A DNA stretch of 64,000 nucleotides, taken from contig CAYPEN010000001.1 of the NCBI GenBank assembly GCA_964409875.1, forward strand, positions 292,275-356,274. The letters are read 5' to 3'. The DNA comes from an uncultured Gammaproteobacteria bacterium. GTDB taxonomy: Bacteria; Patescibacteriota; Microgenomatia; Levybacterales; GWA1-39-11. The notes beneath the pieces were generated by a model. The model was given only the letters and a program-made list of their open reading frames with translations. It was not told where the DNA came from and ran no database searches. Below, one piece after another: positions 14,159 to 49,200 of the stretch. Numbering within the stretch: the first letter of the stretch is position 1; every line of letters starts with the position of its first letter. Both the position numbers and the translations under genes were made by a program.

Positions 14159-15177
14159 GTGCAACGTTTGGTCTTGATATCGGTACAACATCCATTAAGG
14201 CGCTTTCCATAAAGAAAAGTGGAAATGTTATGTCTGTGGAATCATTAGGCTTGGGGCCGACGCCAACCAAGGGCATAATGTCCGAGTCAGGTGAGGACAT
14301 GGCAAGGTTCACAGACTCAGTTAAGCAGGTTATCGCAAGCGCAGGTATCAAACAAAGAGAAGTAAATATTGCGCTGCCCGAGAGTCAAGTCTATACAAAA
14401 ATAATTGAGATGCCTTCTCTTTCCGAAAAGGAACTAGCCGCAGCTCTAAAATATGAGATGGAACAATATATTCCACTTCCACTGGACCAGGTAAAAACCG
14501 ACTGGCAAATACTCGGCGCATCCACTCAAACTAAAGCGACAAGAGTTCTGCTTGTTGCCGCATCCCTTTCACTTATTAAAAAATATGAACAGGTTATGGA
14601 TACGTTAGGGATGGTGCCTGCTACTATCGAGACAGAAATGATATCAGTGCATAGAGCGATATTTCCGCTTGTAAATACACAATCCTCCAACATTATTGTG
14701 CATATGGGAGCAGCAACAACAAATATTGCCGTTGTTGAAAATGGTGAAGTTGTTATGGTCTTTACCGTTGATAAAGGAGGAATAGCTATAACCCGGGCAA
14801 TCTCACTTGATTTGGGAATTGATTTATCACAAGCAGACTCTTATAAAAAGGCGTATGGATTGAGTAAAGAGGCGTTTGAAGGGAAAATTGGTAAATCCCT
14901 ATTCCCTATTCTTGAGTCAATACTGGGAGATATTCGAAAAACAATTCTCCTATATAAAGAAAAAAACCCCAACCAGCAGATTACGCAACTCATACTCTCG
15001 GGTGGATCTGCACAACTTCCGGGTGTTGATATATATTTTACCAATCAACTTAATTTGCAGGTGGTTTTGGGAAATGCATTTCAAATTTATGACATAAAAA
15101 ATGTTCCGCAAGAACTATCCTCTGACGCTTTAAGTTTTAATGTCGTTGTGGGGCTCGCCCTCAAAGACATTATCTAG
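14155..15177 (+). CDS. pilM: Type IV pilus assembly protein PilM (actin-like ATPase fold)
   Basis: A 340-aa ORF beginning FGLDIGTTSIKAL, with length and position matching PilM. Confidence 0.8.
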   Translation: MSATFGLDIGTTSIKALSIKKSGNVMSVESLGLGPTPTKGIMSESGEDMARFTDSVKQVIASAGIKQREVNIALPESQVYTKIIEMPSLSEKELAAALKYEMEQYIPLPLDQVKTDWQILGASTQTKATRVLLVAASLSLIKKYEQVMDTLGMVPATIETEMISVHRAIFPLVNTQSSNIIVHMGAATTNIAVVENGEVVMVFTVDKGGIAITRAISLDLGIDLSQADSYKKAYGLSKEAFEGKIGKSLFPILESILGDIRKTILLYKEKNPNQQITQLILSGGSAQLPGVDIYFTNQLNLQVVLGNAFQIYDIKNVPQELSSDALSFNVVVGLALKDII

Positions 15178-26413: not shown

Positions 26414-26457
26414 AATTTTTGCTCGCTTCAAAATGCGTAATTTGCTATAGTAATAAT

Positions 26458-27255
26458 ATGTTTCGAAAGCTTTTTGTTGTTTTCTTTTTCCTACTTTTTT
26501 TTCTTCAAGCGCCGTTCCTTTATGCCCAATCGCCTACTCCGCGCCAGGAAGTAAATGGTGCGGCGACTCTTGGGGTCGCCCACATGGTTGAAGTTGCAAA
26601 AAAAGATGTGCCAGATGGAAGCATTCTTTCATCAGGAACAAAAGGAGCAATTCAGACCGTTGTTCCTTACGACTCGCAAGTTTTGGGCGTTGTGTCTCGT
26701 GATGCTGCTATTATTTTCAATACGGCAACAGCAACAAATATTGTTCCTGTCATTTCTACCGGCACGGTATATGTATTGGTCAATTCCAGTGAAGGAACCA
26801 TCAAAAAGGGAGACCTTCTGACTTCATCGACTACCCCTGGTGTTGCTGTAAAGGCGACAAAAGAAGGTTTTGTTTTGGGGAGTGCGATGGAGGATTATGC
26901 CAACTCCGACAAAAAAAAGGTGGATAAAATTGCCGCAAACCTTGACCTTCATTACTTCAATTCAAAGCCCACTTTCCCCGGAACGCTCTCAGATGTATTT
27001 AAGTTGGTTCTGCTGCCCACCAAAGAAGGACCAAATCCAGTTTTTAAGTACATCATGGCAGGTTTAGTTGTATTGGGTTCTATGATTCTTGCTTTCTTAA
27101 GTTTTGGAAGAGCTGCAGCCAAAGGTGTTGAGGCACTAGGTCGTAATCCAGCTGCATCCCGCATCATACATCTTGGAATTATTTTTAATGTCACAATAGT
27201 TGTTGCTATTGCCGCTGCCGGACTTGTCGTGGCATTTTTAATCCTCCGTTTGTAA
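26458..27255 (+). CDS. Hypothetical exported protein with an N-terminal signal peptide and a C-terminal two-helix hydrophobic hairpin
   Basis: MFRKLFVVFFFLLFFLQAPFLYAQ signal peptide. The C-terminal ~70 aa form two hydrophobic helices separated by GRNPAASR. Confidence 0.4.
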   Translation: MFRKLFVVFFFLLFFLQAPFLYAQSPTPRQEVNGAATLGVAHMVEVAKKDVPDGSILSSGTKGAIQTVVPYDSQVLGVVSRDAAIIFNTATATNIVPVISTGTVYVLVNSSEGTIKKGDLLTSSTTPGVAVKATKEGFVLGSAMEDYANSDKKKVDKIAANLDLHYFNSKPTFPGTLSDVFKLVLLPTKEGPNPVFKYIMAGLVVLGSMILAFLSFGRAAAKGVEALGRNPAASRIIHLGIIFNVTIVVAIAAAGLVVAFLILRL

Positions 27256-28022: not shown

Positions 28023-28757
28023 ATGCCTGCCCTGTTGTTTCAGGTTATTACTGTTGTGTTTGACCTGTCGGTAATAGTCTTTGTTGCCGTCTATGTAATG
28101 GGCGTCAGAAAGAAGGAAAAGGACGTTGACAAGAAGGAAGGAAAAATCGAGCACGATTACCAGGCAATAGTCGAGCAAAGCAGGACACAGGAGCGGCAAA
28201 TAATTGAAAATGCGATGTCCCAATCAAATCAAATGATGCAGATAGCAACGCACCAGGCCAACCAAATTCTTGCTGGTACACAGTTCATGACCCAGTCCAC
28301 AAGGACAACGCTTGAAGCGGCGCTTCAAAAGATGGTTGTAGAGGTGCAAAATACGGGTTCCAACTCAAAGATAGCACTTGAGCAATCCTTGCAAAAAATA
28401 ATTAATGATGTACATAAAGAAGCGTTTAATTCGGGAAATGAAGCGGCATCGCACTATCAGGCGTCATTAAAACAAATAACTTCCGTGTCTCTTACAGGTT
28501 TTCAAAATGTTACCAATCAACTCGAGCTTTCACTTCAACAGCAGATTAAAGAATTCAGGACTACTTTACTTGCCAACCTTGAGAAAGAGGTTGAAAGTTA
28601 TAAACAGTCAAAAATTCACCGGATTGACCAGGCATCGAGCATCATTGTCCAAAGGGTTGCGCAAGAAGTGTTAAATAAATCACTTACACTTGATGACCAT
28701 GAGAATCTTGTCATCCAATCGCTTGAGAAGGCAAAGAAGGAAGGAGTATTCGACTAA
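28023..28757 (+). CDS. atpF: F-type ATP synthase subunit b-like (single TM helix plus a long coiled-coil)
   Basis: MPALLFQVITVVFDLSVIVFVAVYVMG TM helix, then an extended charged and Gln-rich helix. It lies immediately upstream of delta with a TAATG overlap. At 244 aa it is long for a b subunit. Confidence 0.45.
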   Translation: MPALLFQVITVVFDLSVIVFVAVYVMGVRKKEKDVDKKEGKIEHDYQAIVEQSRTQERQIIENAMSQSNQMMQIATHQANQILAGTQFMTQSTRTTLEAALQKMVVEVQNTGSNSKIALEQSLQKIINDVHKEAFNSGNEAASHYQASLKQITSVSLTGFQNVTNQLELSLQQQIKEFRTTLLANLEKEVESYKQSKIHRIDQASSIIVQRVAQEVLNKSLTLDDHENLVIQSLEKAKKEGVFD

Positions 28758-29284
28758 TGGAAACAATTGACCTTTCGGACCTGTTCCACACAAAAGCTCA
28801 AGCTGGCGATTTTTCTGCTCGGCTTGCAGTTATCACAAAAAAAATATTTGAGACAAGCTTTAATCCGGAAGCAGCGCTTCTTGAAAGCTTTGGAATAAAG
28901 AAGAAAGACACCCTTATGACGCTTCTTCGCAACAACAATATCAACCCCGAGTCCCGTCTTGCGATAAAAGAATTTTTTGAGAAAATCCAACAAAAAATTA
29001 CTTCCCTTCCCGTTCTCTCCATTATTCTTGCCTTTGAACCGAAGGAAGCGACTTTAAGAACGCTCTCAAGTTGGTTTGTGCTTAATACCAACAAGCAAGT
29101 CCTTTTTGATATTTCGGTTGATACGGCTCTTATCGGTGGTGCTGCAATATATTCCAACGGGAAATATCTTGATTTTTCAATACGCTCTGTATTTCATAAA
29201 GCCGCAAATGACATAGCAGTTATGAATGGACTTGTCCCCCAACAAGCAAATCAGGTAGCTTCCAGAAAGGACACAAACGCATGA
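28757..29284 (+). CDS. atpH: F-type ATP synthase subunit delta (OSCP)
   Basis: Its C-terminal LIGGAAIYSNGKYLDFSIRS resembles the OSCP tail. It shows ATGA coupling to atpA. Confidence 0.6.
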   Translation: METIDLSDLFHTKAQAGDFSARLAVITKKIFETSFNPEAALLESFGIKKKDTLMTLLRNNNINPESRLAIKEFFEKIQQKITSLPVLSIILAFEPKEATLRTLSSWFVLNTNKQVLFDISVDTALIGGAAIYSNGKYLDFSIRSVFHKAANDIAVMNGLVPQQANQVASRKDTNA

Positions 29285-30756
29285 ATAACGAATTTCAGAC
29301 ACTTTTACAGAAAGCAGGAGAATACGGCATCGTCTATCAGGTGAGCCATCCTATTGTTTTTATTGAAGGACTGCCGAAAGTAAGAACGCATGAGGTAATT
29401 ATTTTTGAAACAGGACAAAAGGCTGAAGTATTTACTATCAATAGAGGTAAAATTGAGGCCCGTGTATTTTCCCATGAGCCTGTTAAGGTTGGAACGATGG
29501 CGACTCGTACCGGGGCTATTCTTGCTGTTCCGGTCGGACCAGAGCTTTTGGGACATACAATTGACCCTTTGGGCGATCTACTTGACCCATCAATAAAGTA
29601 TACAAAACCAGCCACAAGCCGTGACATGGATGCAAAGCCTATTGGTATTTCGGGAAGGCAAAAAATAACAAAGCATCTGGTAACCGGCATTTCACTTATC
29701 GATTTGCTGGTGCCATTAGGGCGCGGGCAGCGGGAACTTATTATTGGAGACAGGAAAACAGGTAAAACTTCAGTTTTGATGACAACTATCAAAAGCCAAA
29801 TCTTTGAAGGAAATATTGTTATTTATGCAGCAATAGCAAAGAAAAAAAGCGATATAAAAAGGCTTCAGGAATTTTTCGAGGCAGAAAAAATAATGGACAA
29901 AATAATAATTGTCGCAACCAGTTCTTATGACTCCCCAACTCTTATCTACCAAACACCATATGCGGCAATGACTATTGCTGAATATTTCCGCGACCAGGGA
30001 GTCAACACGATAGTTGTTCTTGACGATCTTTCAAATCACGCAAAGTTTTACCGTGAGCTGTCTCTTCTTGCCCGCCGCTTCCCGGGCCGCGATTCGTATC
30101 CGGGAGACATTTTTTATGCCCATTCAAAACTCCTGGAGCGGGCTGGAAATTTCAAACACCCAAAAACCGGCGAGGTAGCAATTACGTGCCTTCCTGTTAT
30201 TGAGATTATTGAAGGAGACTTTACTGGCTATATTTCTACAAATGTCATGGGAATAACCGACGGCCACATTTATCTAGATGCAAATATTTATTATCAAGGG
30301 ATGCGGCCTGCAGTCAATATTCCGCTTTCAGTGACGAGGGTCGGAAGACAAACACTAGATAAATTGTCCCGGGATATTAATAAGGACTTGACTGCATTTC
30401 TGACTGAATTTAATAGGTTGCAGAATATTTCCCATTTCGGGCAGGAATTAACTGATGACGTAAAGAAGAACCTGCGTCTTGGCGAGCTTGTCAATAAATT
30501 TTTCAGTCAACCGTACGAGGAAATTGTTCCCCAGAAAGTGCAGGTTGTTATTATCTCTCTTATCCTTCAGAATGTAATCCAGACGAAAGAAGAGCTCGAA
30601 GAAACGAAGAAATTTCTTATTGCCGTTTACTACGACCGTGCAAGGCAGAAAATACTGTATGATATTACTAACACAAATGACATTAAAGTTTTTCATGAGA
30701 ACGTAATGAAGAACAAAGAACACCTTATGCCGCAAAAATCAGCGGTGAAAAATTAA
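29281..30756 (+). CDS. atpA: F-type ATP synthase subunit alpha
   Basis: GDRKTGKTSV P-loop at 491 aa. Confidence 0.95.
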   Translation: MNNEFQTLLQKAGEYGIVYQVSHPIVFIEGLPKVRTHEVIIFETGQKAEVFTINRGKIEARVFSHEPVKVGTMATRTGAILAVPVGPELLGHTIDPLGDLLDPSIKYTKPATSRDMDAKPIGISGRQKITKHLVTGISLIDLLVPLGRGQRELIIGDRKTGKTSVLMTTIKSQIFEGNIVIYAAIAKKKSDIKRLQEFFEAEKIMDKIIIVATSSYDSPTLIYQTPYAAMTIAEYFRDQGVNTIVVLDDLSNHAKFYRELSLLARRFPGRDSYPGDIFYAHSKLLERAGNFKHPKTGEVAITCLPVIEIIEGDFTGYISTNVMGITDGHIYLDANIYYQGMRPAVNIPLSVTRVGRQTLDKLSRDINKDLTAFLTEFNRLQNISHFGQELTDDVKKNLRLGELVNKFFSQPYEEIVPQKVQVVIISLILQNVIQTKEELEETKKFLIAVYYDRARQKILYDITNTNDIKVFHENVMKNKEHLMPQKSAVKN

Positions 30757-30953
30757 CTATGCCACAAAGAAAAATAAGCAAAGCTTGTTTCTCTTTGTTT
30801 GAGATAAAGACGTAATATATTGTAAAGAAAAATAAGCAAAGCTTGTTTCTCTTTGTTTGAGATAAGGACGTAATATGTTGTAAAGAAAAATAAGCAAAGC
30901 TTGTTTCTCTTTGTTTGAGATTATAAAAAATTAACTATGCCACAAAGAAAAAT
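30748..30953 (+). repeat. 58-bp tandem repeat (2.5 copies: 30775..30832, 30833..30890, 30891..~30921) bracketed by a 28-bp direct duplication (30748..30775 and 30926..30953) of the atpA stop / atpG start region
   Basis: The unit is taagcaaagcttgtttctctttgtttgagataaagacgtaatatattgtaaagaaaaa; copy 2 has two substitutions. The duplicated 28-mer aaaaattaactatgccacaaagaaaaat includes the atpG ATG, so a decoy MPQRKISKACFSLFEIKT mini-ORF begins at 30759. Confidence 0.85.
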
Positions 30954-31824
30954 CATTGCTGAAAACCTCGAGGCGCTAAACAGCTTAAAAGATTTAGCAG
31001 AAAGCTATGAAGAAATTGCCGTTATTCGTATGCAAAAAATTAAGGACTCAGTTCTTAAGACTCGTGATTTTTTGCAGGATTTATCTGATGTTTTTGTCGA
31101 CTTAAAGTCTTCCTATGATCGGGAAGTGAAGGAACTTATTGCAAGGAGAAAAACAGGGGACAAGACAATCCTGCCTCTTCTTCAGAAAAATGGCAAAACG
31201 CTTCTCGTGTACCTCTCTTCCAACGGTAGGTTGTATGGTTCTGTCACACAAAAAACCTACAAACTATTCATTCAAGATCTTAAGAAACCAGACAACCAGA
31301 ATAGCGACCTGCTTATTATAGGAAGTGCAGGCAAAGAAATGTATGAAGCATCGGGCGCTGCACGGCCTTTCACATACTTTGAGATACCGGACGTTGGAGT
31401 TGATTTGGCTCACATCAAGCAACTCATGCAGAAATTTTTGCAGTATGAAAAAGTGCATGTGTATTACGGAAAATTTGATAACGTGGTAAACCAAACTCCT
31501 ATCGGAACCAGCATCACAGGAGAAAATATCTTTGAGTCCGAGGTTGTTGAAACCATAAGCCGCGATGACAGGTTCATTTTTGAGCCAATTTTGGAGAAAA
31601 TATTTTACTTTTTCGAAACGCAAATTATAGCCAACCTTTTCTCACAAACGCTTCTTGAAAATCAACTTGCCCGCCACGCCTCACGGGTCAACGCTATGGA
31701 GGAAGCACTCATCCACATTGAGGAGGAATCAAAAAAACTGGTAAAAGCGAAGAACACTATCAAACACCAGTTGCAAAACAGAAAGCAACTCGAGACCATT
31801 GCCGGTCTTACACTTTGGAGTTAG
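30937..31824 (+). CDS. atpG: F-type ATP synthase subunit gamma
   Basis: A 295-aa ORF with N- and C-terminal coiled-coil helices of the gamma subunit (MPQRKIIAENLEALNSL...). Confidence 0.85.
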   Translation: MPQRKIIAENLEALNSLKDLAESYEEIAVIRMQKIKDSVLKTRDFLQDLSDVFVDLKSSYDREVKELIARRKTGDKTILPLLQKNGKTLLVYLSSNGRLYGSVTQKTYKLFIQDLKKPDNQNSDLLIIGSAGKEMYEASGAARPFTYFEIPDVGVDLAHIKQLMQKFLQYEKVHVYYGKFDNVVNQTPIGTSITGENIFESEVVETISRDDRFIFEPILEKIFYFFETQIIANLFSQTLLENQLARHASRVNAMEEALIHIEEESKKLVKAKNTIKHQLQNRKQLETIAGLTLWS

Positions 31825-33333
<1,509 letters not shown>

Positions 33334-33341
33334 GAAAAGAT

Positions 33342-33644
33342 ATGGCGGATAAGTTATTCCATGTAAAAGTTAGGGATACCGAGAATCTTATTTTCGAGGG
33401 AGAAGTCGAAAGGATAAGTTCTTTTAATGAAGTAGGCCCGTTCGATATATTTCCCATGCATGCAAATTTTATTTCAATACTGCATCAAGAAGTGTCTCTT
33501 TACAAGGATAATCAAAAGGTAAAAGAATTAAAGTTTGAGCAAGCAGTACTGAAAGTAAAGCAGGATGTTGCTCATATCTTTTTAGGCATAGAGGTGCTTT
33601 TTGTTGAAAGTACTACCCCTCTCAATGCGCAAAGTTCCTCCTAA
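33342..33644 (+). CDS. atpC: F-type ATP synthase subunit epsilon
   Basis: A 100-aa ORF at the last position of the operon, beginning MADKLFHVKV... like an epsilon beta-sandwich. Confidence 0.75.
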   Translation: MADKLFHVKVRDTENLIFEGEVERISSFNEVGPFDIFPMHANFISILHQEVSLYKDNQKVKELKFEQAVLKVKQDVAHIFLGIEVLFVESTTPLNAQSSS

Positions 33645-33740: not shown

Positions 33741-34132
33741 AGTTGCAATTTAGCCTGAAATTAAGGCATTTCACAAGACTTTTCATAGTTTGAAAAATAA
33801 ATTGAATTATTTTGTAAACAATTTTTTTTCTTTTCATGATGAGAAAATTAAATAACGTGAAAAGTCTTATGACTATAAGATAATTTCACAGATAGATTAT
33901 TTCCTAAAAAAATAAGAATTTTTTTTATAACCATAACTACATCAATCTATATCATACTGAGCAACCATTTTTTCATAATTTTTCTCCCCCTGATGCAGGT
34001 TTAATTTTTTTTATAAAAATCAGTATAGTTTGTTACACTTCTTTCCATTTCGTTGCGTTGACTAAATTTGTAAAAAAAAGTTACAGTAGATGTACACCCG
34101 TTTTAGCAATTGGTGATGACCCAAACTCATCA

Positions 34133-34297
34133 ATGAAATTATTAACTTTAAAGCAGGCGGCCCGTATGCTGGGCGTCTCTCTTGAGACTCTACAGTATTT
34201 GGCCAACAGATATGGTCTAAGCCCCGTAGTCAATGACAGGGGTGAATTTTACTACGAAGAAGACAAACTTCGAGCACTTCTTGAGACAGCAGAATCT
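34133..34297 (+). other. N-terminal helix-turn-helix-like segment (MerR/excisionase-type pattern) of the giant protein
   Basis: MKLLTLKQAARMLGVSLETLQYLANRYGLSPVVNDRGEFYYEEDKLRALLE has the LxxxEaAxxLGVSxxTlxxwxxxG pattern of HTH_17/MerR-family N-termini. Confidence 0.4.
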
Positions 34298-37200
34298 ACA
34301 TACCGCAAGTTCACACAAAACAAGGCAACTATAGGTCAAAAAAAGAGCTTTTTTCAAAATCATGAAAACTCAGAAGCCTCAACTGGTTCTCCTGCAGCTC
34401 CATTAAAGGGCGAAACCAAATGGGAACTCTTTGTTAAATTTACCTACCTCCGGCCTGGAAAAAGAGCTATTGTTTTAGGGGTCATCACCTTAGCTCTTAT
34501 ATTCTCTTTGGGATACGCTCAAGTATCTCTTCTCAAGCTAAAAGCTCAAAAAGCCAATAATGCTTTCAATGCACTTGAGGATACGAGCTCAAAAGTTCTC
34601 GGTGCAGCGACGAGTAAGCTGAAATTAACCGGTAACATTCTCTTTAGCCTGCCTTTAGTTTCGAAGGAGAATGTAGCTATCGGAAAAGAACTTCAGGTAA
34701 CGGGGAAGAGTTTTTTCAAGGATGACATTACTGCACCTAATGTCGTGTATGGAATAACAGCAGGAGGAGGAATTACAATTTCCGGTGATGCGCAAAATCC
34801 GGTCATTTCTGCCGTTCAAGGTGGAGTTACATCACTACAGGGTACCACAGGTGACGTAACCCTTAAGGCTGGAACAGATATTTCGATTTCCGGACTTACA
34901 ATAAGCGATGCTTCTACCCTTTCCACGGTCGTTTCACGGGGAGATTGCACGGGATGTATTACCGATGCGGCGGTAGTAAATACTCTTACCATCGACTCGG
35001 GAGGCCAAGTAGCCGCAGGTGCCATTAAGGGAACTCTTACGACGTCGGTTGGAGGAACCGGACTCAGCACGTATGCAACGGGTGATTTGATATACGCTTC
35101 TTCAACAGACACTCTTGATTCACTTCCAATCGGAGCCGCCGGTCAATTTTTGACGGTTTCAAACGGGCTTCCCGCTTGGGCTTTTGTGAGTTCTTTTGCA
35201 GTTGCCAACGTTAAAGAAAACAACGTAATCATCTCTTCTCAGACGAACACTCTTAACTTCGCAAATAGTGATTTCGATCTTACCGAAAGTCCCGCAGGTC
35301 AAGTCAATATTCAACTTGCCCCTACACCGCCTTCGATAACAGGGGTAGTGAGCAATTTCTCCGTTGGTGGAACCGCAATCACATTTTCTACTAGCGGTTC
35401 GATAACTTCTGCCGGTGCAAATGCATTGACGCTCGATACGGGAACTACTGGAACCCTCAATCTTGGAACCAGTAATAATGCTAAGACTGTTAATATAGCA
35501 ACCGGTAATGCGGGCAACACCGTAAATATTGCAACTGACAACACTGTAGCAGACACCATCAATATCGGCTCGGCGCTTGATACCAACAATCTAAATTCCG
35601 GCTTGGTATATGTCCCGAATGGACGTGTAGGAATAAAAGCGTTGCCTAACGATGTTGATGCAGACACCAATCCTTTTGCCCTTGAGGTAGCAGGGAGTAT
35701 CGGTCCGAATGCGGACGGTGTTTATGATTTGGGTTCTCCGTCATTGAGGTACCGCAACTTGTATATTACGGGGGCGACAACCTCAAATGGAGACATTACG
35801 ATAGCCAATAATTCACCGAAAATTTATTTCATTGATACCGACGTGGGCCAAAACCAGTACCTGGTAAACGTGGACACCTCACAGTTCACGCTTAAAAACA
35901 ACACCACGGGGGCTACGGCCCTCTTTGTCGATTCTAATGGGGATGTGTCTTTGGCCGGAGGATCTGCCTCAACGGGGTGTACAATAGCCGATGCAACCGG
36001 AAATCTGGTGTGTGCCGGAAGCATAACGACCTCCAATACTTCGGGTACGGTTGGGTTCTTCTCACGCAATAACGGTACATCCACCATTTCTCCTGCAACT
36101 TCAGGTGATAATATTTCAACTTCGGGTAATATCCTGACGACGGGAACAGGAACAATTACCTCCGCAGGACTCTTGACTGCTTCAAACGGTTTGACTGTTA
36201 CAGCAGGCGGAATTAACGTAAATAGCACCGGCATTACAAATGCAGGGGATATCCTCGGAGCGGGGGCTATTTCTGCAAGCGCCGCGTTGACATTTACGGG
36301 AACAGGTACAAACATTACAACGGTTTCAAATGCTGATTTGACTATTGGTGCCAATGGAAGCGGACAGCTTGTCATTTCGAGCAATGTTCTTCTTGGGACT
36401 CTTCCGGGAGCAGGAGTGTCGGCAACTACTTTGTGCCGAGATAACACAACTCACCAAATTACCCAGTGTCCAGCGAATGCGTCAAATGTTTCGTTGCAGG
36501 ACGCATATAATGCAGGCAATACAATCAATACCTCTGACAACCGCGACATTGCTTTTACCCTGACCGATACCGCAACCGACTCAAAGTTCATGCTTACCAA
36601 CCAGGGCACCGCAACAGCTTTCACCATAAATGACACAAATGCTGCGGTTAACACGCTTCTTTCGATTCAGTCAAATGGTACTCCTACTCTAACAATTGAT
36701 GAAAATGGCGTAGTTTCAACTTCCGGCAATATTGCAACAACTGGAACTGGAACAATTACCTCTGCCGGACTTCTTACAGCCTCAAACGGGTTAACAGTTT
36801 CAGCTGGTGGAATATCGGCAAACGGTGGCATTAACAACAACAATGGGGGAATTACCAATGCCGGTGACCTTTTAGGAGCTGGGGCAATTTCTGCGAGCGC
36901 CGCATTAACTTTTACAGGAACAGGTCCCAACATTACAACCGTTTCTGATGCGGACTTAACAATTGCGCCAAACGGCTCAGGGCAAATCATCCTCTCCAAC
37001 AATGTACTTCTCGGAACGCTTCCCGGAGCTGGTGTTTCTGCTACCACTCTTTGCCGAGACAATACCTCCCATCTTCTGACACAGTGCCCAGCAAATGCGG
37101 CAAATGTTTCACTGCAAGATGCATATAACGCAGGGAACACTATAAATACATCAGACAACCGCGATATCGCTTTTACCTTGACCGATACCGCAACCGACTC

Positions 37201-40200
37201 AAAGTTCACGCTTACCAACCAGGGCACCGCTACCGCTTTCACAATCAATGACACGAATGGTGCGGTTAACACCCTTTTGTCCGTACAATCCGGCGGCACG
37301 CCAACATTAACTATTAATGAGAACGGAGTCCTTTCAACCAGCGGCAGCATCTCAACTACCGGTACGGGAAGCATTACAAGTGCGACTACTTTGACCGCAC
37401 AAGGTACCACCAACCAACTCGTTCTCGGAAATGGGAACACTACAACCATCAATTCCCTTGCACCTGCAAGCGCAAGGATTGCAACAATCCCGGGTTTGAC
37501 CATTAATGACACTTTCCTCTTTGCAACCGAGTCAGCGCTTGTTTCCAACAAGACTTTCAGGGACAACTCGACCAATTTCCAGGACGAGCTTGATAACACG
37601 AAGCAATTCTCATTTGATGCAAGTCTTATCTCAACGGGCGTTACAAGAAAGATACAAATTCCTGATTACGACGGGACTGTTTGTTTGACGACCGGTAACT
37701 GTGCAGGGTCAGGCGGAGTTGTCGGAGGAAACGGTACCCTTAATCACTTAGTGAAATTCACTATTACCGGTTCGACAATCGGAGACGCGAATCTCACAGA
37801 CAATGGAACAGTTGTGAATGTTCTTTCGGGACTGAATGTCGGTGACCAGACAGGTTCTGATACGTTGTCGGTTCTAAGACTTTTGGACGCAACCGGCGGA
37901 AGCCAAATCCAGAACTCAAATCTTCTCACGCTTCAAGGTGCATATTGGACGGGGGCGGTTTCGCAAAGTGTCGGGTTCTCGTTGCAAAATGTGGTAACCG
38001 CTACTACACCAACTTACAAATTGTCATTCCAAAATGATGGTGGCTCGGAAGTCGCAAGTATTGCCAACAACGGAAATGTCGCGTTAACAGGAACCGTAAC
38101 CGGCGCAACCGGCCTTACTTCCTCAGGAACAATCACATTCTCCGGACTTACCAATAACGGTCCGGTGTATACAACGGCAGGAGGAGTGTTGAACTCCGAG
38201 ACTCTTCTCTCTCCTGTAAGAGGCGGAACGGGCGTTGACTCCTCTTCTGCAGCAAACGGGGCAATTCTTATCGGAAATGGAACAGGGTTTACTCTCGCAA
38301 CTATCACCGGTACTGCAAATCAAGTAAATGTTGCAAATGCGGCAGGAAGCATTACTCTTTCGACTCCACAGGATATTGCAACCTCCTCCACTCCGACGTT
38401 TGTCTCACTTACGTTGTCAAATGCGACTAACCAGTTGGTATTGGGCACTGGCAACACTACAACCATTACCTCTCCGGCTCCCGGTGCTTCAAGAGTTGCT
38501 ACCATTCCAACGCTTGCCGGCAATGACACATTCGTATTTGAGAGCCAGACTCAAACACTTACAAATAAAACCATCGGCTCAACAGGGCTTGTCTTCTCAG
38601 GGGCTGCAACGGACATCACTACCGTTTCAAACGAAGACCTGACATTATCAGCCGACGGGCTTGGTGAGATAGTTCTTTCAAATGTGACCAAAATTCCAAA
38701 CCTTTCAGGAACGGTTGGTGCTACTGTTGTCTGCCGGAATGCATCAAATGAGTTCTCTATTTGTTCATCAAATGCTCTCAACGTTACGCTACAGCAAGCA
38801 TATAATGCGGGCAACACGATCTTGGCATCCGACTCGGAGGGCAACATCGACTTTACATTAGCCGACCTTTCCTCCAGGGCACTGACAGTTACCAATGCAG
38901 GAAGTGCATCATCGGCTCTTGTTATAAACGACACGAATGCATCGGTTCAGAATGCTCTCGAAGTACAGTCTAGCGGCTCAGCAACTCTTACTATAAATGA
39001 GAATGGAAATATCTCAACTGTTGGAAATATTTCAACAACCGGTACGGGAACGATTACGAGCGCCGGTCTTCTTACTGCGTCAAACGGTTTGACAGTGACC
39101 GCAGGAGCAGTCAATATTGCGGGTTCGTCAGGTGTAATCAATCTAACCGGTTTGACAGCCCTGACAATAGATGCAGGAGTCAACAACCTCCTCTTTACCG
39201 GTGGCAATTTCAGTACCACAGCAACAGGCATCAACGGAACGGCAATTGGCGCAACTACCCCGTCAACCGGTAACTTTACCAACTTAACAACGACTTCCAA
39301 TGCTTCGTTCTCGGGCAATCTAACTCTTGCAGGGGCTCCAAGAAGCATCCAGACGACCGAAAACAACACGTTGACCATTGGTGGTGATACGACGGGAAAT
39401 ATTGTTCTTGCACCTCTCAATGGAACAGGAATCCTTACCGTTAATGGAAATACTGTTAATGTCGGAAGCTTTGATGTTAATGGTGTATCAACTTTCAATA
39501 ATAATATTACCCAGTCAGGAGCTTTCACATTCTCAACCGGAACAGGTGCAGTTTCACTGAATGGTAATACATCCGTTACGGGCACTAACACATTCACTGT
39601 TGCGGGTGGTGCTACATCTTTGGGGTCGACACTGGACGTGACCGGGATAACAACTTTGAAGAATGATGTATTTGTAACATCCGACCGGTTCTTCAATGCA
39701 TCAGGGTCGGCTATATTTACTCCGTCGGGTACGAATTCTGTCGTATTCAATACAAATTCAAATGCTAAAGTTCAATTCAACGGCCTTCAGACCGTTAACG
39801 GTAATTCCCTTTGTGTGGACGGCTCAAATTACCTGGTAGTCTGTAACGGAGCGCCATTCGGTCTTCAGGCGGCATATAATACCGGAAACACCATTAACAC
39901 GTCTGATGCCCGAGACATCGCATTCACTCTTTCAGACACCGCTACCGACTCAAAGTTCATTTTGACCAACGAAGGGACAGCAACAGCTTTCACTATCAAT
40001 GACACCAATGCTGCAACCAACACCCTTTTAGACATCCAATCGGGAGGTGTTTCGAAGTTAACTATCAATGAGAATGGAGTCCTTACAACTTCTGGCAACA
40101 TCTCAACGACCGGAACCGGAACTATAGCTTCGGCAGGACTTTTGACCGCTTCCAACGGATTAACATTAACAACCGGTGCATTAAATCTGACCGCTACATC

Positions 40201-43200
40201 CGGGTCATTGAGTCTTTCCGGCCTCTCCGCCTCATCCCTCAATTTCGGAGCAAATGACTTAACGATTACTGCCAATAATTTCAATACGACCGCAACAGGC
40301 ATCAATGGAACTGCAATTGGAGCAACAACTCCCTCAACCGGTAACTTTACGACGCTTACAACAACCGGCAATGCATCATTCTCAGGGAATCTGACCCTTG
40401 CCGGTGCACCCCGTTCTATCCAAACAACCGAATTTAACACGCTGACAATTGGAGGAAATACAACGGGCAATATCACACTCTCTCCTCAAAACGGCCTTGG
40501 TGTATTTACTATAAATGGAAGCACCGTAATTTCAGGAGCAAATACTTTGACTGTTGGGACCGGTGCAACGACTCTAGGAGGAACACTTGATGTTGCCGGT
40601 ATTGCAACATTCACCAACAACATCTCACAAACAGGTGCGACGACCTTCTCTACAGGTACTGGAAATGTGTCACTTAACGGCAATACCTCCGTTACAGGAA
40701 CCAACACATTTACTGTAGGAACCGGTCTTACAACGCTTGGAGGCAACTTTTTGGCACAAGGCACTGCATCAATTTCTGGGGGGCTTACTTTGTTTGGGAC
40801 GCCAAGCATTCAGTCAACCGCTGACCAGACTTTGACCATTGGAGGAGACACAACAGGCAATATTATCCTTACTCCTCTTAATGGAATTGGTATTGTGACA
40901 GTTAATGGCAATGTTGTTGATACCGGGACATTTACCGTCAATGGGGTTTCAACATTCAACAATAATATATCGCAAACAGGGGCTTCCACCTTCTCAACCG
41001 GAACAGGTAACGTCTCACTCAATGGGGCAACATCCGTAACCGGCACTAATACTTTCACTGTCGGAACCGGGGCTACAACACTTGGCGGGACACTTGATGT
41101 TACAGGGGTTGCTACATTTAATAATGATGTTTCCCAAACAGGAGCGCATACCTTCTCAACCGGAACGGGAGCCATTTCTTTGAATGGTGCTACTACAGTT
41201 GCTGCTAATACTGCATTTCTTGTAAGTGCAGGCTCAGGAAGCGTTGATTTCAAAAACACATCGGGAATTACAATCGGCGAGGATATCGCAGGCGGCACCA
41301 ATAATACTCCAGGAACAATTAAGCTTTGGTCTCAAGGGGACAATGCATATTCAACAACCATTACAACAGCCACCCAAACGCAAAACATTACATTTACCTT
41401 GCCGCCAGATGATGGTATAGCAAATTACGTTCTTGTAACGGATGGAAACGGAGTTCTTTCATGGCAGTCAACATCAGGTATTGGGGCTGGGACGATTACG
41501 GCTGTTGGAAATGTAACTTCCGGTACCGCGTTTACCGGCAGTGACTCGTCCTCCAATAAAGGAAATATTCTCATCTTTGAAGGCTCCACAACCGTGGATG
41601 ATGCAAATGATATAACGGTAACTGCAGTTAATCCTGTTTCATCAATTACCTACACGCTTCCCGATATTGGCACCAACGGAACGTTCGCTTTCCTTGAGGG
41701 GACCCAAACGTTCACGGGGGCAAAGACATTTTCTGACTTGACGATTAGTGACACCAACATTCCATTTACCGGAGGGGATACAACTTTTGATATAACAGGA
41801 GCTGCAACACGGACACTTTCACTTGTTAATTCAACGGTAGGACAGGTTGCAAACCTCGAACTTACTGATGGTGACCTTTTGACTGCCGGCACCTCCAGGC
41901 TTACCAATGCAGGAGCATTGCAAAACATCACCGGGTATACGCAGACTTCAGGCAACTTCTCTATAGCAGGAGCAGGAACATTCTCAACCGGAACCGGCAG
42001 TATTTCGTTGAATGGTAACACTTCTGTTACCGGCACTAACGCCTTTACGGTCGGAACCGGTCTAACGACTTTGGGCGGAGACCTTCTAACAAATGGAACA
42101 GCTTCTGTTTCAGGTGCGTTAACGCTCTTCACAACACCAACCATTCAAGCAACCGACCTCCAAGCATTAACTCTGGGAAGCGCTACAACCGGCCAACTTA
42201 ATCTTTTCAATAATACGTATGTTTTAGGAACCAGTAACTTCACAGTCGGAACCGGAGCGACTACACTTGGCGGAACACTTGATGTTGCCGGTGTTGCAAC
42301 ATTTACTAACAATATCTCCCAAACAGGAGTAACCACCTTCTCAACAGGCACCGGTAATGTTTCACTTAATGGGAATACATCCGTTACGGGTACTAACACA
42401 TTCACTGTTGCAGGTGGTGCTACATCTTTGGGGTCGACACTGGACGTGACAGGAATTACCACTTTGAAAAATGATGTGTTCATAACATCCGACCGGTTCT
42501 TTAATGCTTCAGGCTCTGCTGTCTTTACTCCATCATCTGACAATGATGTTGTCTTTAACACCGATAACAACTCAACCGTTATCTTTAATGGGCTTCAGAC
42601 GGCAGCAGGTTCAAAAATTTGTATCGACGGGTCCAATAACCTGGTTCTTTGTGCATCTCAGGGTGGAACATTGCAGCAGGCTTACAATGAGGGGAACACC
42701 ATCAACACATCTGACGCCCGGGACATCGCATTTACGCTTTCTGACACCGCTACCGACTCAAAGTTCATTTTGACGAACGAAGGAACAGCAACGGCTTTTA
42801 CTATCAATGACACGAATGCGGCAACCAACACATTGCTTGATATCCAGTCGGGAGGTGTTTCGAAGTTAACCATAAACGAGAACGGTGTTCTTACAACTTC
42901 TGGCAACATCTCAACAACCGGAACCGGAACCATAACTAGCGCAGGACTTCTCACTGCATCAAATGGTTTTACGGTCACAACCGGAGCAGTCAATATTACC
43001 GGCACATCAGGGGCCCTTAATCTCACCGGTCTTACCGCTGCAACAATTGATGCGGGAGTCAACAATATTCTTATAACTTCGGCCAACTTCAATACCACAG
43101 CAACAGGTATCAACGGAACTGCAATTGGGGCCACTACACCTTCAACGGGTAATTTCACGACTTTGACTACAACCGGAAATGCTTCAGTCTCGGGAAACCT

Positions 43201-46200
43201 TACCCTTGCAGGAGCACCCCGTTCCATCCAAACGACTGAATTTAACACCCTGACAATTGGAGGAAATACGACTGGAAATATTGTTCTTTCTCCTCAAAAC
43301 GGTCTTGGTCTATTTACTATAAATGGAAATACGGTAGTGTCTGGCACTAACACCCTAACTGTCGGAACAGGAGCCACCACACTGGGCGGGACATTGGACG
43401 TAGCCGGTGTTTCAACATTTACCAACAACATCACCCAGACAGGAGCATCAACTTTCTCAACAGGAACAGGTGCAGTTTCACTGAATGGTAACACCAGCGT
43501 AACCGGCACTAACACATTCACTGTCGGAACAGGCGCAACAACACTTGGAGGAACCTTGGATGTTGCCGGAGTTGCAACATTTACCAATAACATTTCCCAA
43601 ACAGGAGCAACCACCTTCTCAACCGGAACGGGTGTTGTTTCTCTAAATGGCAACACATCGGTTACCGGCGCCAACACCTTCACCGTCGGAACCGGTCTTA
43701 CAACTCTTGGAGGAAATCTTATCGCAAATGGCAGCGCTTCTATCTCAGGAGCTCTAACTCTTTTCGGAATTCCGACAATCCAAACTACCGATTTCCAAAA
43801 CTTGACTCTCGGAGGGGGCCAGACCGGGGGCATCGTTCTTAACAGCGGAACGGTTGTCAATGGAGGAAACACTTTCACTGTTGGAACCGGTGCCACTACT
43901 CTTGGAGGGACTTTGAATGTTGCGGGTGTTGCAACATTTACCAATAATATTTCTCAAACAGGAGCAACCACCTTCTCAACCGGAACGGGTGTTGTTTCTC
44001 TAAATGGCAACACATCGGTTACCGGTACTAACACATTTATGGTTGCAGGCGGAGCGACGTCCTTGGGTTCCACACTTGATGTAACGGGAATAACAACTTT
44101 GAAGAATGATGTATTTGTAACATCCGACCGGTTCTTCAATGCATCAGGGTCGGCTATATTTACTCCGTCGGGTACGAATTCTGTCGTATTCAATACAAAT
44201 TCAAATGCTAAAGTTCAATTCAACGGCCTTCAGACCGTTAACGGTAATTCCCTTTGTGTGGACGGCTCAAATTACCTGGTAGTCTGTAACGGAGCGCCAT
44301 TCGGTCTTCAGGCGGCATATAATACCGGAAACACCATTAACACGTCTGATGCCCGAGACATCGCATTCACTCTTTCAGACACCGCTACCGACTCAAAGTT
44401 CATTTTGACCAACGAAGGGACAGCAACAGCTTTCACTATCAATGACACCAATGCTGCGGTTAACACCCTACTCTCCATCCAATCTAACGGAACACCGACA
44501 TTAACAATTGATGAGTCAGGAGCTTTAAGTACAAGCGGTAGCATCACAACAACAGGAACAGGAACCATAACCAGCGCAGGACTTCTCACCGCTTCAAATG
44601 GCCTGACTCTCACAACAGGGGCATTAAGCCTAACTGCCACTTCCGGTAGTTTGAATTTGACCGGCCTCTCTTCATCTACCCTTGATTTTGGAGCTAATGA
44701 CCTCACAATTACTGCAAACAACTTTAATACAACAGCAACGGGAATTAACGGAACGGCAATTGGTGCAACCACCCCATCGACGGGTAACTTTACCTCTCTT
44801 ACGACAACGGGTAACGCATCATTCTCAGGAAATCTAACCTTGGCAGGAGCACCCCGCTCTATTCAGACGACGGAGTTTAATACGTTGACGCTTGGAGGAG
44901 ATACGACAGGCAATATTACGCTCTCTCCTCAGAATGGTCTTGGAGTATTTACCATAAATGGAAGCACCGTCATATCGGGAACCAATACGTTTACCTCTGG
45001 CACTGGGGCAGTAACATTAAATGGTGCGACATCAATAACTGGAACAAACACTTTAACTGTCGGAACGGGTGCAACCACTCTTGGAGGAACCTTGGATGTT
45101 GCAGGCGTTGCAACGTTTACCAATAACATTTCCCAAACAGGAGCAACCACTTTCTCAACCGGAACCGGAAATGTTTCTTTGAACGGCAACACTTCTGTAA
45201 CCGGAACCAATACCTTTACGGTCGGAACCGGTCTTACGACACTTGGAGGAGACTTAATTGCCAATGGAACGGCCTCTATTTCAGGCGGACTAACGTTGTT
45301 TAGTATCCCTATCATTGGTACTACCGACCTACAGGCATTGACACTTGGAACTGGAACTACGGGTCAAATTAATCTTGCAACCAACACGTATGTTCTTGGC
45401 ACAAGCACATTCTCTGTCGGGACTGGTGCAACAACGCTTGGCGGAACACTGGATGTTGCAGGCGTTGCAACGTTTACCAATAACATTTCCCAAACAGGAG
45501 CAACCACCTTCTCGACCGGAACCGGAAATGTTTCACTGAATGGTGCAACAACCGTTACGGGGACAAATGCATTCTCGGTTAACGGTGGCCCAACAACACT
45601 GGGTTCCACATTGGATGTTACGGGAATTACAACACTTAAAAATGATGTATTTGTAACATCCGACCGGTTCTTCAATGCATCAGGTTCTGCTATCTTTACT
45701 CCTTCGACTAACAATAATGTAGTGTTTAATACATCTGCAACCGAAAGGGTTCAATTCAATGGTCTTCAAACGGTTAACGGAAATTCACTCTGCGTAGACG
45801 GTTCTAATTACCTTGTTGTATGTAACGGAGCGCCATTCGGACTGCAGGCAGCCTACAACACCGGCAACACCATCAATACGTCAGACGCACGGGATATTGC
45901 ATTCACATTGTCAGATACCGTAACGGACAGTAAATTCATTTTAACTAACGAGGGAACGGCAACGGCATTCACCATCAACGACACCAATGCTGCAACAAAC
46001 ACACTTTTTGATATCCAATCCGGAGGTGTTTCAAAGTTAACCATAAACGAAAATGGAGCTCTTTCAACTTCGGGGAATATTTTAACAACCGGAACCGGAA
46101 CGATTACCTCTGCAGGTCTTCTCACCGCTTCCAATGGTCTGACTGTTACGACGGGTGCTGTTAACATCACCGGTACATCAGGTGCGTTAAATTTATCCGG

Positions 46201-49200
46201 CCTTGGAGCATCACTCATTGATGCTGGAACCAACAATTTGCTTGTTACTTCTGGAGCATTTACGGTTGATGCAACAGGCATTAATACTACGGCAATTGGT
46301 GTTACAACCCCAAAGCAAGCAACATTTACAACCCTTTCCTCGCTTAGCGACACAAGTATTGCAACGGGAGCAGGCGCAATACTTAATGCCGGAAACACAA
46401 CGGGTGCCGTCACAATCAATGGCTCAAATGTAACAATTAATGCTAACGGAACCGGTAATGGGATTGCGTTTGGTTTGCCTGTAGACTCGCCAAATGCATT
46501 TAGTGTTTCAGAATCGACCAACGGATACATCAACGTTGACACATCAACGGGGGCAGAAAACGTTTCATTTGGAAACACCAACACAAATCCAACATTTCAA
46601 TTCCAGGGGACTGGAGCAACAACGTTTGGCGGGGACGTTGCGGTGAACGGCGGGGTTCTTTCAACAACTGCAGTATCCGCCTCACTCTTCAATACCAATG
46701 CAACTACCCTTAATATAGGAGGTGCTGCAACAACGGTAACGCTTGGAGCCAACACCGGAACAACAACCGTCAACAACGCGCTTGCCGTTACGGATTCTGT
46801 AACCGTTACGCCGAACAATGCTACAGGAATTGCGCTTAATCCTTTCGGGGTTGCTGCCGGAAATACTGCTGAAGCGCAATTTTATGAGCTTGCAGCCAAT
46901 GGGAGCGAATACACAGGATTTAAGGCTCCTGATTCCTTAGCGGCAACGGTTGTTTATACCCTCCCTTCTGCCGCTGCAGGAGCCGCCGATTATGTTTTGA
47001 CATATCAAAATGGTGGGTTGCTTGAATGGAAGAGCGCAAATCTTCTCGCGGGCGACATCACAGCTGTTGGTGATGTTTTGACAGGTGACGCATTTACAGG
47101 AACAGATGCAGGAAACAATTTATATTTCCAAGGTGCAACTGTTGACTCGTTCTCAATTGATCTTCAAGGAGCTGATGCAACGCAAAATGAAACAATAGTT
47201 TTACCTGCGAATTCCGGTACGGTAACTCTCTTACAGCCCCGCTTTGCACAGACTGCTACCGGAACTCAGCCACTGTTGTTCTTGAACGAAGCGGGGGCTT
47301 CAACGCCAAACCTCATCCAGTTGCAGGTTGCTTCAAATGATGTGTTTACTGTTGATAACAGCGGGAATGTTGCAATAGCCGGTGCAACAGTTTCATCAAC
47401 AGGTAGTACCGTTAACCTGTTTAATACTGTCACTTCAACGCTTAATATTGGTGGCGCTGCGACAACAGTTTCCTTGGGAGCAGGAACTGGCACGACAACC
47501 GTTAATAACGCGCTGACATCTACTGGACTTATTACCGCTAATGGAGGACTGACAGTTGCAAACGGACAAACCCTTACTGTTGATGGAATTGCAAATATCG
47601 GGGACGGTGGAGATGCAGTTGCCCTCAACGGGACAACCATTACGCTCACTGCAAATGGTGCAGGTAACGATATAACTGCAAACCTGGTAGATAACAATAC
47701 CGATGCTTTAGACATCCAACAGGGTACGAACAATTATCTAAATATTGATACTACAGACGGGTCTGAAAACATAACATTTGGAAATGCTACGACCAATCCG
47801 ACATTTACTTTCTTGGGAACGGGGCTTACTACTCATGGTGGGAGTATCGCGGTCAATGGAGGTGATATCACAACAACAGCCGGAACAGCCAATATCTTCA
47901 ATGCGAATGCAACAACTGTCAATATCGCAGGAGCCGCTACAGCGCTCTCATTAGGTGCTTCAACTGGGACAACCAGCATCAATAATAACGCAGTTGTTAC
48001 CGGCGACCTTGCTGTAAATGGGGCGTCCAGTGCAGATATCACTTCAACCACCGCAACAGCGACAGTGTTCAATTCAGGAGTTACGAATTTATCTATCGGG
48101 AATGCAGCTACTACCCTCTCTATAGGAGCCTCGTCAGGAACAACAACCGTTAATAACGCGCTGACTATAACCGGTGCAACAACGGCTAATGGGACATTTA
48201 CGGCAAACAACCAGGTGACGCTTCAACCATCGGGAACGAATGGAGTTACCATTGTTACTGATGGTAATTCATTCCTCACCATTCCGGGTCTTACCACTCC
48301 TGTTGCTTCAAATTCTACCCTTTGTATTGACGCATCAGACAATGTTGTTAAATGTCCTCCGTCTGCTTCAACGTTGCAGTCAGCATATAACGGAGGCAAT
48401 ACTATCTTTACCAGTGATGGACGTGATGTTGCCTTTACTCTTACAGACACGACCACCGACAGCAAATTCACTATTCACACCGCAACCGGTTCTACAGCGG
48501 GGACAGAGTTTGTACGTGAAGATGGTGCTGGTACAGCAGATCCAACACAGCTTGTCTTAATTGATAACGCAGATATCGATAGAATTCTGCCTATTGGTAT
48601 TAAAATAACCTCTTCCGGAACGAGCGGGGTCACTACAGCGCTTGATGTTTCCGACCCGACAATAGTAACGGCAATTGCGCTCGGTGCAAATGATGTAACC
48701 GGAACCAATTTCTCAGTAACTGGCTCGAACGGGAATATAACGTCCGCTGGAGACATTGCTGTTAATGGTGGAGATGTGACAACTACCAATGCGACTGCTA
48801 CCCTCTTCAACTCAAATGCAACCAGCCTCTCAATAGGCGGCGCCGCAACGACATTAACCTTAGGAGCGAATAATGCAGGAACCGCAACAATAGCAAACGC
48901 TACCGTTACGCTGTCAAATGCTACAGCATTCAACGCTCTTGCGGCTCTTGCAAAAGTAGATAGTCTTGAAGTAGGCGGAGCATACGGCTCAACCGGGGTG
49001 ACGATTTCAAATGCAGGAGATGTCCAGGCAAATGGAGCACTTACTATTGATGGAACATCGACTCTAACGGGGGACATTACCTCATCAGGGGATCTTGCCT
49101 TGAACGGTTCAGACATCACTACAACATCGAATGGTACTGCAACACTATTCAACACCAATGCAACGACTTTGAATATCGGCGGTGCTGCAACTACCATCTC

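Follow-up and report, generated by a model that had tools for sequence, protein, structure and literature searches.

The stretch of DNA analysed here (hereafter the window; 64,000 nucleotides [nt] of contig CAYPEN010000001.1) carries a giant open reading frame (ORF) on its forward strand. Reading frame 2 is free of stop codons from base 33908 (the preceding in-frame stop ends at 33907) to the end of the window, and from the ATG at 34133..34135, recognized as the start codon by comparison with orthologues, 9,956 codons follow without a stop up to base 64000, where the ORF is still open. The encoded protein thus comprises at least 9,956 amino acids (aa), a lower bound, since the ORF runs past the window; its composition is dominated by Thr (19.8%), Gly (12.9%), Ala (11.3%) and Asn (10.4%). 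The following modules were distinguished, all on the forward strand: (i) a MerR/excisionase-type winged helix-turn-helix (HTH) domain (34139..34342), predicted to be cytoplasmic; (ii) a low-complexity, poorly conserved linker (aa 71-111; 34343..34465); (iii) a single transmembrane (TM) helix (aa 112-134; 34466..34534); and (iv) a repetitive, presumably extracytoplasmic Thr/Gly/Ala/Asn/Ser-rich fibre (34535..64000), with a conserved juxtamembrane motif (aa 155-174; 34595..34654) just outside the membrane. The ORF probably encodes a bitopic, N-in/C-out membrane protein of a bacterium that is itself a probable member of the Patescibacteria (candidate phyla radiation). In our analyses we mainly focused on its N-terminal head and on the function that the HTH domain may perform there.

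The head contains a genuine winged helix of the MerR/excisionase fold, composed of the first ~55-70 residues. With the 134-aa head as the query, Pfam family MerR_1 scored 31.6 bits (cut-off 21.6; aa 5-54) and HTH_17 28.9 bits (cut-off 27; aa 3-52), while with a 1,000-aa query HTH_17 reached 25.0 bits, which is under its cut-off. The AlphaFold2 (AF2) model, built from a 34-sequence family alignment, has a predicted local distance difference test score (pLDDT) of ~94 for aa 1-60 and consists of a strand (3-5), two helices (6-13 and 17-27), a strand forming a hairpin (39-42) and a third helix (43-70), i.e., the beta-alpha-alpha-beta-beta-alpha topology of a winged helix, with a core at aa 3-55 and helix 3 extending to aa 70. 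A Foldseek search of the PDB placed solely MerR-type winged helices at the top (BldC, RacA, pSK1 Par, CarH, SoxR, MtaN, BmrR and CvkR); BldC (6amk/6ama) was superimposed with a TM-score of 0.73 on the target and a root mean square deviation (rmsd) of 2.1 A over 51 residues, at 29-32% identity. The E-values were just ~2e-3 because the domain is short, and the ranking was nonetheless uniform. The resemblance of the first ~50 aa to HTH_17/MerR/excisionase helices, proposed in an earlier note made from the sequence, is therefore borne out by the Pfam cut-offs, the AF2 fold and the Foldseek ranking. The long coiled-coil dimerisation helix and the C-terminal effector domain of classical MerR proteins are lacking: helix 3 is followed by a disordered linker and then by the TM helix, and no effector-binding domain was found after the winged helix in the Pfam search. 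Nor did Trans_reg_C, the OmpR/PhoB-type winged helix, give a Pfam match in the head, even at E<=1. Two further signals were disregarded, namely the top rows of a PDB profile search (designed toroid repeat proteins and a weak LubX U-box, considered short coincidences of helical and wing motifs) and a "terminator-like" hairpin at 34160-34174, which lies inside the conserved coding HTH and was taken as chance.

A scan of 185,579 species genomes yielded six loci (L004-L009, L004 being the window's 89% relative). At each of them the giant gene lies immediately downstream of atpC, AtpA is 75-98% identical, and the ORF runs off the fetched DNA. The HTH and the TM helix, separated by a variable linker and followed by the juxtamembrane motif VLG.QTSKLKLTG..F.LP, are kept in all six. 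The arrangement HTH, linker, TM helix and QTSKLKLTG motif is found in seven genomic relatives immediately downstream of the atp operon and, likewise, in fragments P0001, P0010 and P0011; the question of whether orthologues keep the HTH-TM head can thus be answered positively for all seven genome loci and several metagenome fragments. Since the HTH-TM-fibre fusion recurs in seven independent genome loci, it is not an assembly artefact. Between the window and L004, HTH codons 1-55 show 10 synonymous and 0 non-synonymous differences, and the ratio of non-synonymous to synonymous substitution rates (dN/dS) is 0.27 for the linker and 0.05 for the first 156 ectodomain codons. These substitution patterns show a conserved head under purifying selection.

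The head family is rare, with 10 proteins at E<=1e-3 among 1.84 billion representatives and 33 matches in a profile-based word-indexed search; one relative is annotated as originating from Candidatus Roizmanbacteria. We defined an atp-linked giant fibre family by (i) a head composed of the HTH, the TM helix and the QTSKLKLTG motif, (ii) a Thr/Gly/Asn-rich fibre with CxDGSNxxVxC hairpins, and (iii) a location directly downstream of atpC, with or without a partner gene (described below), and the gene in the window shows all of these features. Five of the six records obtained in the genome scan (L004-L007 and L009) are titled "uncultured Gammaproteobacteria bacterium" and the remaining one "Patescibacteria group bacterium"; the nearest named relatives are Patescibacteria and Roizmanbacteria, which gives the former title the look of a placeholder or mislabel.

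The in-frame ATG, GTG and TTG codons of the 5' region are TTG 34058, ATG 34133, ATG 34166 and TTG 34199, and none occurs from 34200 through the TM segment. It had been stated that no alternative start exists between the HTH and the TM helix, and this is correct, the last in-frame candidate being TTG 34199. Orthologues with 46% identity begin with MKLLTLKQAAR and have Gln or Lys at position 12; as they lack Met12, ATG 34166 cannot be the start of the family, and 34133 is. In the nucleotide alignment with L005-L007, codons 1-10 contain four differences, all at synonymous third positions, while in the 75 nt upstream of ATG 34133 the differences from orthologues fall at all codon positions. In L009, fragments P0003-5 and the sister clade (which comprises the partner-bearing loci described below) the start lies ~10 codons further upstream, at MD.D..NSSKK. 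At the corresponding site the window has ATT (34109), L004 CTT and L005-7 ATA, and the genomes with these codons are exactly those that have Met where the others have Lys. The alignment indicates that the start codon has shifted within the family, yet always upstream of the HTH. The former codons that precede the shifted start survive as a conserved leader, CCAAACTCATCA (window 34109-34135). No Shine-Dalgarno motif precedes 34133; such motifs are rare throughout the window, and their absence here is therefore uninformative. In public data, an identical Logan contig (L001, 3275) and an 87% relative (P0002) carry gene calls that begin at Met12 (34166). Calls of this kind drop the first strand and helix of the HTH, and database copies consequently under-report the domain.

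The linker, delimited by the AF2 model, identity and dN/dS values, ends with the basic sequence YLRPGKR. Its pLDDT is <50 (aa 75-106), its identity to the L005 counterpart is 23%, and its length differs among relatives; at ~40-55 aa it is shorter than the ~60 aa previously estimated. The TM helix, AIVLGVITLALIFSLGYAQVSLL, corresponds to the Kyte-Doolittle maximum of the protein (19-residue average of 2.14 at aa 113-131), the next-best value in the 9,956 aa being marginal (1.61). It is covered by a long helix in the AF2 model (aa 108-154) and is found at the same place in all relatives. With one clear hydrophobic peak and the AF2 helix, the view that one TM helix joins the HTH to the ectodomain holds. 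These data show a TM helix that is predicted to be both the export signal and the membrane anchor (a signal anchor) of a fibre of at least 9,800 residues. The positive-inside topology assumed in the earlier note stands in part: an N-in/C-out orientation is reasonable, but the charge bias is slight, with 4 Lys and Arg residues on the N side of the TM helix versus 3 on the C side (3-5 versus 2-4 in ten relatives). The predicted orientation is based rather on the Cys pairs, which appear only after the TM helix, on the fibre-like composition, on the folded N-domain and on the lack of an earlier hydrophobic segment, and from this we infer that the winged helix stays in the cytoplasm. At the outer end of the TM helix (aa 126-131 of the window protein and equivalents) a conserved [FYL][AT][QRT]Q boundary is visible (YAQV, FARQ, YARH, LTTQQ, FTQE). 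This boundary might be cut in the manner of a signal-peptidase site, which would detach the fibre from the head.

The juxtamembrane motif, VLGAATSKLKLTGNILFSLP, was delimited in the family alignment (A2), in which columns V155-P174 are invariant, and is common to the giant orthologues and to the ~460-aa partner proteins. The fibre was assigned from its composition, and no Pfam family was found anywhere in it. It contains 46 Cys residues forming 23 pairs with members 3-11 residues apart, all beyond aa 271 (aa 272-9828; window 34946-63619). Most of the pairs occur in the context (L/V/I)C(I/V/L)DGSNxxVxC, and many recur approximately every 350 residues. The arrangement is suggestive of an exported repeat whose hairpins are stapled by disulfides, i.e., modules of ~350 aa, each with one probable disulfide hairpin.

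The residues of the head that correspond to known DNA contacts were mapped in an ungapped alignment of 19 family sequences to BldC and RacA, anchored at Thr19, Trp/Leu23, Gly37 and Tyr41 (16 of 50 positions are identical between the head and BldC). The BldC and RacA sequences were checked against the PDB, and the contacts were taken from the published structures (PMC5859096, PMC4914108). The YpG-reading arginine (BldC R30, RacA R19) makes the key base contact in these proteins, and alanine mutants lose binding (PMC5859096, PMC4914108); RacA K15 and R19 are "completely conserved" in RacA homologues (PMC4914108), and the substitution H46E abolishes DNA binding by BldC (PMC5859096). In the head family, the equivalent positions are occupied as follows: (i) BldC K26/RacA K15, a base contact, by Glu or Asp in 18 of the 19 sequences; (ii) BldC R30/RacA R19 by Tyr, Glu, Lys, Ser and others, and never by Arg; (iii) BldC K33/RacA K22, a phosphate contact in BldC (K33), by Glu, Asp or Asn in 16 of the 19; (iv) RacA R30 in the wing by Ile, Val or Thr; (v) BldC H46, also in the wing, by Glu or Gln, the native equivalent of H46E; and (vi) the wing residues BldC R47 and R48 by hydrophobic residues or Gly in most sequences. 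The basic residues that contact bases and phosphates are thus lacking on the recognition helix and wing of the head. Net charge of the 50-residue core (-4 to +2 in the family, +6 in BldC) is by itself indecisive, as RacA has only +1, and position-specific mapping was used instead. In the sister clade this face is polar and yet hardly varies (WN..NILKPTIT..GEIGYTQ). The loss of basic contacts leads us to infer that the head no longer reads DNA, and the near-invariance of the acidic/polar face points to a specific ligand, probably other than DNA. On this residue pattern, docking to a protein is a more likely function of the head than gene control.

The majority of the profile matches to the head are proteins of ~420-500 aa, in which the HTH, the TM helix and QTSKLKL are followed by a variable outer loop, then by a second TM helix and finally by a C-terminal domain of very high conservation. 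In L008, L010, L011 and a 126-kb JGI contig (P0035) such a partner gene lies between atpC and the giant gene, in the order atp operon, partner, giant gene (L008 6378-7877, L010 10001-11416, L011 8719-10381, and the P0035 contig). The giant genes of this sister clade (4,040 or 4,454 aa in two complete calls) also begin with HTH-TM-QTSKLKL. An example of the partner is MBI5122405.1 (= P0021), labelled "MerR family transcriptional regulator". Over the 50-aa core, the HTH of the window protein is 36-44% identical to partner heads and 34-40% identical to the heads of sister-clade giants, which makes the two indistinguishable; these identities speak neither for nor against an origin of the window head by recombination between partner and giant heads, and they do not discriminate between loss of the partner in the window clade and its gain in the sister clade. 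No partner gene was found in the available DNA of the window clade (34 kb upstream in the window). The possession of a common head suggests that the partner and the giant protein bind either a common cytoplasmic ligand or one another.

The C-terminal domain of the partner is a nearly invariant orphan that contains PLSRLVTRLGFVGIKRDLFFPRTSK. No Pfam match (even at E<=10), sequence relative in the PDB or annotated relative was found, and its assignment as an OmpR/ToxR-type winged helix, initially suggested by the sequence pattern, was dropped on the basis of the Pfam and PDB results. The AF2 model of this domain (pLDDT 40-67) was too poor for a structure search, and a homologue search returned just fragments of the same family. 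The spacer between the partner and the giant gene (L008 7878-7970; L010 11417-11557) contains a GC-rich element common to two distant genomes, AGGTCCACACAGGTCCAC in L008 and AGGACCACACAGGTCTAC in L010, which could be a processing or attenuation signal.

The giant gene is preceded by a conserved non-coding promoter and leader block (34020..34132, forward strand), delimited by nucleotide alignment with L004-L007 and L009 and by a consensus scan. It is composed of TATAGTTTGTTACACT (34024-34039), the promoter-like hexamers TTGACT-18-TACAGT (34058-34087), TACACCCGTTTTA (34093-34105) and, just before the ATG, the leader CCAAACTCATCA. The differences from L005 fall at all three codon positions, so that the block is not coding. 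At the nucleotide level this region of ~110 nt is far better conserved than the protein linker, and equivalents were located at L005 7877-7948, L009 7876-7943 and L008 ~6300-6377; the L008 homologue is situated in front of the partner gene, as the promoter of a partner-plus-giant operon. The block contains a tandem TAyAGT-TTGT-TACAsT with copies one helical turn apart (in its fuller form CAGTAyAGTTTGTTACAsT ... GTTGACT-18-TACAGT), and a direct repeat with a spacing of 57 nt is present in the window, L005 and L009, i.e., in the three window-clade loci tested. By its sequence the block could be an operator, an UP-like element or a set of tandem promoters. In a regulon scan of the 64-kb window, GTTTGTTACAST gave 14 matches at <=2 mismatches versus 14.35 expected, and TACACCCGTTTTA matched its own site only, with no evidence of further targets.

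Taken by analogy with RodZ, the head would be a repurposed cytoplasmic docking or anchoring module at the base of a signal-anchored giant fibre, a reading to which we assign a probability of about 0.5. RodZ is a bitopic membrane protein whose N-terminal HTH is needed for the binding of MreB (PMC3599482). In the giant protein, the surface that normally faces DNA (the recognition helix and wing), now acidic/polar, would serve as a specific protein-docking handle that holds or positions the base of the fibre from the cytoplasmic side, and in the sister clade this handle would probably couple the fibre to the neighbouring ~460-aa membrane protein with the same HTH-TM-juxtamembrane head. Such a function is consistent with the 10 synonymous and 0 non-synonymous differences in the HTH, the loss of the DNA-binding face and the existence of a partner with the same head. 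Of the two functions suggested for the HTH in the earlier note, a repurposed cytoplasmic anchoring domain therefore fits better, although as an interpretation, than ToxR/CadC-type coupling of surface contact to transcription, for which the residue pattern is unfavourable and the OmpR-type fold is absent. Several points weigh against a docking function: the adjacent partner gene is absent from the window clade, at least within 34 kb upstream; every close structural neighbour binds DNA, and the head passes the Pfam thresholds of DNA-binding families; binding of DNA or RNA in a non-canonical manner is compatible with the sequence; the strongly conserved promoter block with its direct repeats would suit an autoregulator; and the contact mapping was derived from aligned sequences and an AF2 model in place of a solved structure.

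Several of these points favour a membrane-tethered transcription regulator (TTR) of the ToxR/CadC kind, whose HTH would bind DNA, most plausibly the repeats of its own promoter, with the state or synthesis of the fibre feeding back on expression. We regard this as possible, if rather unlikely. The head falls under the operational definition of TTRs, i.e., a DNA-binding-family domain and at least one TM region in one protein, and TTRs are common, with 50,302 found, 56% of them single-pass (PMC10269533). All top structural neighbours are DNA-binding proteins, the 110-nt block with its TAyAGT-TTGT-TACAGT tandem and 57-nt repeat is unusually conserved and common to the L008 partner-plus-giant operon promoter, and both the L008 giant fragment and the partner are named "MerR family transcriptional regulator" by NCBI. 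However, the canonical DNA contacts are acidic or hydrophobic throughout the family, including the native H46E equivalent, the charge of the core is neutral to negative, and an OmpR-type domain is absent. The copies of the promoter motif elsewhere in the 64-kb window are no more numerous than expected by chance, and the DNA motif is unchanged between clades whose recognition helices differ by ~60%, unlike in co-evolving operator-regulator pairs.

In a variant of DNA binding that we judge improbable, the head would still contact DNA through a non-canonical surface, and the whole protein would be a one-molecule mechanosensor: tension on the fibre or contact with the host would alter the oligomeric state of the head or trigger its proteolytic release, after which the head would target other promoters as well as its own, the latter through the conserved direct repeats. 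With a comparably low probability, the head may be a passive topogenic element, or "stopper", i.e., a small, fast-folding, hydrophilic N-domain that fixes the N-in orientation and keeps the helix in the bilayer under load, with no ligand. The weak charge bias at the TM helix, which leaves room for a folded N-domain to set the topology, the freely varying linker and the presence, within the visible part, of only one helix to hold a very long fibre would all agree with it. A mere stopper would need neither a record of 0 non-synonymous changes in 55 codons nor a polar surface kept almost unchanged throughout the sister clade (WN..NILKPTIT..GEIGYTQ), nor would there be a need to duplicate the head and the juxtamembrane motif onto another protein.

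A DNA-to-membrane tether of the RacA/RocS kind, in which the head would hold the nucleoid or its own locus at the membrane, perhaps during the minutes-long translation and export of a 10,000-residue fibre, is very improbable. RacA, pSK1 Par and BldC are the closest folds, and RacA and RocS have a similar layout, composed of a MerR-type winged helix, a disordered or coiled-coil spacer and a membrane-directed element (PMC4914108, PMC11500499). Against this, the equivalents of RacA K15 and R19 are Glu/Asp and non-Arg in the head family, and the non-specific binding of RacA needs many basic phosphate contacts, which are absent from the head, whose net charge is not positive. Finally, an annotation or assembly artefact (a true start at 34166 or 34199, or a separate small HTH gene fused by a sequencing error), to which the public calls from Met12 in L001 and P0002 and the lack of a Shine-Dalgarno motif might point, is effectively refuted by the window-wide rarity of such motifs, Gln or Lys at orthologue position 12, the purely synonymous differences in codons 1-10, the uninterrupted ORF in at least seven independent assemblies and the lack of a start codon between the HTH and the TM helix, so that the fusion of HTH and fibre is, as originally claimed, not a start-codon artefact.

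Among the known systems, RodZ is the best match for the probable mode of action of the giant-fibre head, as it has the bitopic N-in/C-out layout predicted for the giant protein (a cytoplasmic HTH at the N-terminus, then a linker, one TM helix and a part outside the cytoplasm), and its HTH binds MreB, not DNA (PMC3599482). RodZ differs in its Xre-type HTH and small outer domain, compared with a MerR/excisionase winged helix and a fibre of at least 9,800 residues here. The head gave no match to the RodZ-related Pfam families (the Xre-type HTH and the RodZ C-terminal domain) and is not a member of the RodZ family. ToxR, CadC, TcpP and TTRs in general share the combination of a DNA-binding-family domain with a single TM helix and an external sensing part (PMC10269533), but the ToxR-like proteins have an OmpR/PhoB winged helix and a compact sensor in place of a MerR-type domain with non-conserved contacts and a giant repetitive fibre. 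BldC, RacA, pSK1 Par and RocS are closest in fold (TM-score 0.65-0.75 on the target, rmsd ~2 A over 50-58 residues, 19-32% identity) and also lack the MerR coiled-coil dimerisation helix and effector domain; they differ from the head in their Lys/Arg base contacts and basic wings and, being soluble or peripheral, none of them forms the start of a giant integral protein.

Giant bacterial surface proteins resemble the fibre as very long, repetitive, mostly unannotatable extracellular polypeptides of ultra-small bacteria with predicted TM association, although those surveyed come from Omnitrophota and other phyla, not from this family of Patescibacteria. The N-terminal regions described in giant-gene surveys are domain-free or carry C39/S8 peptidase or SecA-like domains, and an HTH head is not mentioned in these surveys (bioRxiv 10.1101/2023.11.21.568195; PMC11573180); a literature search gave no relevant result either. 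The ~460-aa partners have the same HTH, TM helix and QTSKLKL and are encoded immediately upstream of the sister-clade giant, behind a promoter homologous to that in the window; they differ in the variable loop, the second TM helix and the conserved orphan C-domain, which is predicted to be cytoplasmic. Proteins combining an HTH with a TM helix, and the automated label "MerR family transcriptional regulator", were known already. New are the presence of such a head on a fibre of at least 9,956 residues, the two-gene module linked to the atp operon and the systematic loss of DNA-contact residues.

Directly upstream of the giant gene lie the F-type ATP synthase genes atpH, atpA, atpG, atpD and atpC (28757..33644, forward strand; Pfam OSCP, ATP-synt_ab, ATP-synt and ATP-synt_DE_N), with atpC ending at 33644; they served as the synteny anchor. 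The rest of the window encodes gyrB, type IV pilus genes, recG, a class A penicillin-binding protein and a GH130 enzyme, and no Rfam family was found in the window. The type IV pilus set (4196-8305 and 14155-15177), which adjoins gyrB, comprises T2SSF (PilC-like), PilM and two T2SSE ATPases, one PilT-like and the other PilB-like with MshEN. Such a gene set is typical of Patescibacteria, and it represents a second surface-appendage system within the window of the giant gene. A 278-aa ORF (26419-27255), located between the GH130 gene and the atp operon, matched the phage XM1 gp53 minor capsid family with a sub-threshold score of 25.1 bits (cut-off 27).

An attached life on host cells is assumed for Patescibacteria, and the building and control of their attachment structures are poorly understood. 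If the head bound DNA, it would connect a surface fibre with transcription in an unusually direct way, and if it acted as a mechanosensor, a ToxR/Notch-like connection of host attachment to transcription would exist in the regulator-poor Patescibacteria. The family clearly exemplifies a MerR-fold domain that has exchanged its DNA-reading residues but kept its fold and a conserved surface; with these residues replaced, the automatic label "MerR family transcriptional regulator" is probably misleading for both the giant fibre and its partner. It offers a conserved ~55-residue cytoplasmic handle, small enough for expression and for tests of DNA or protein partners, on a surface fibre of at least 1 MDa.

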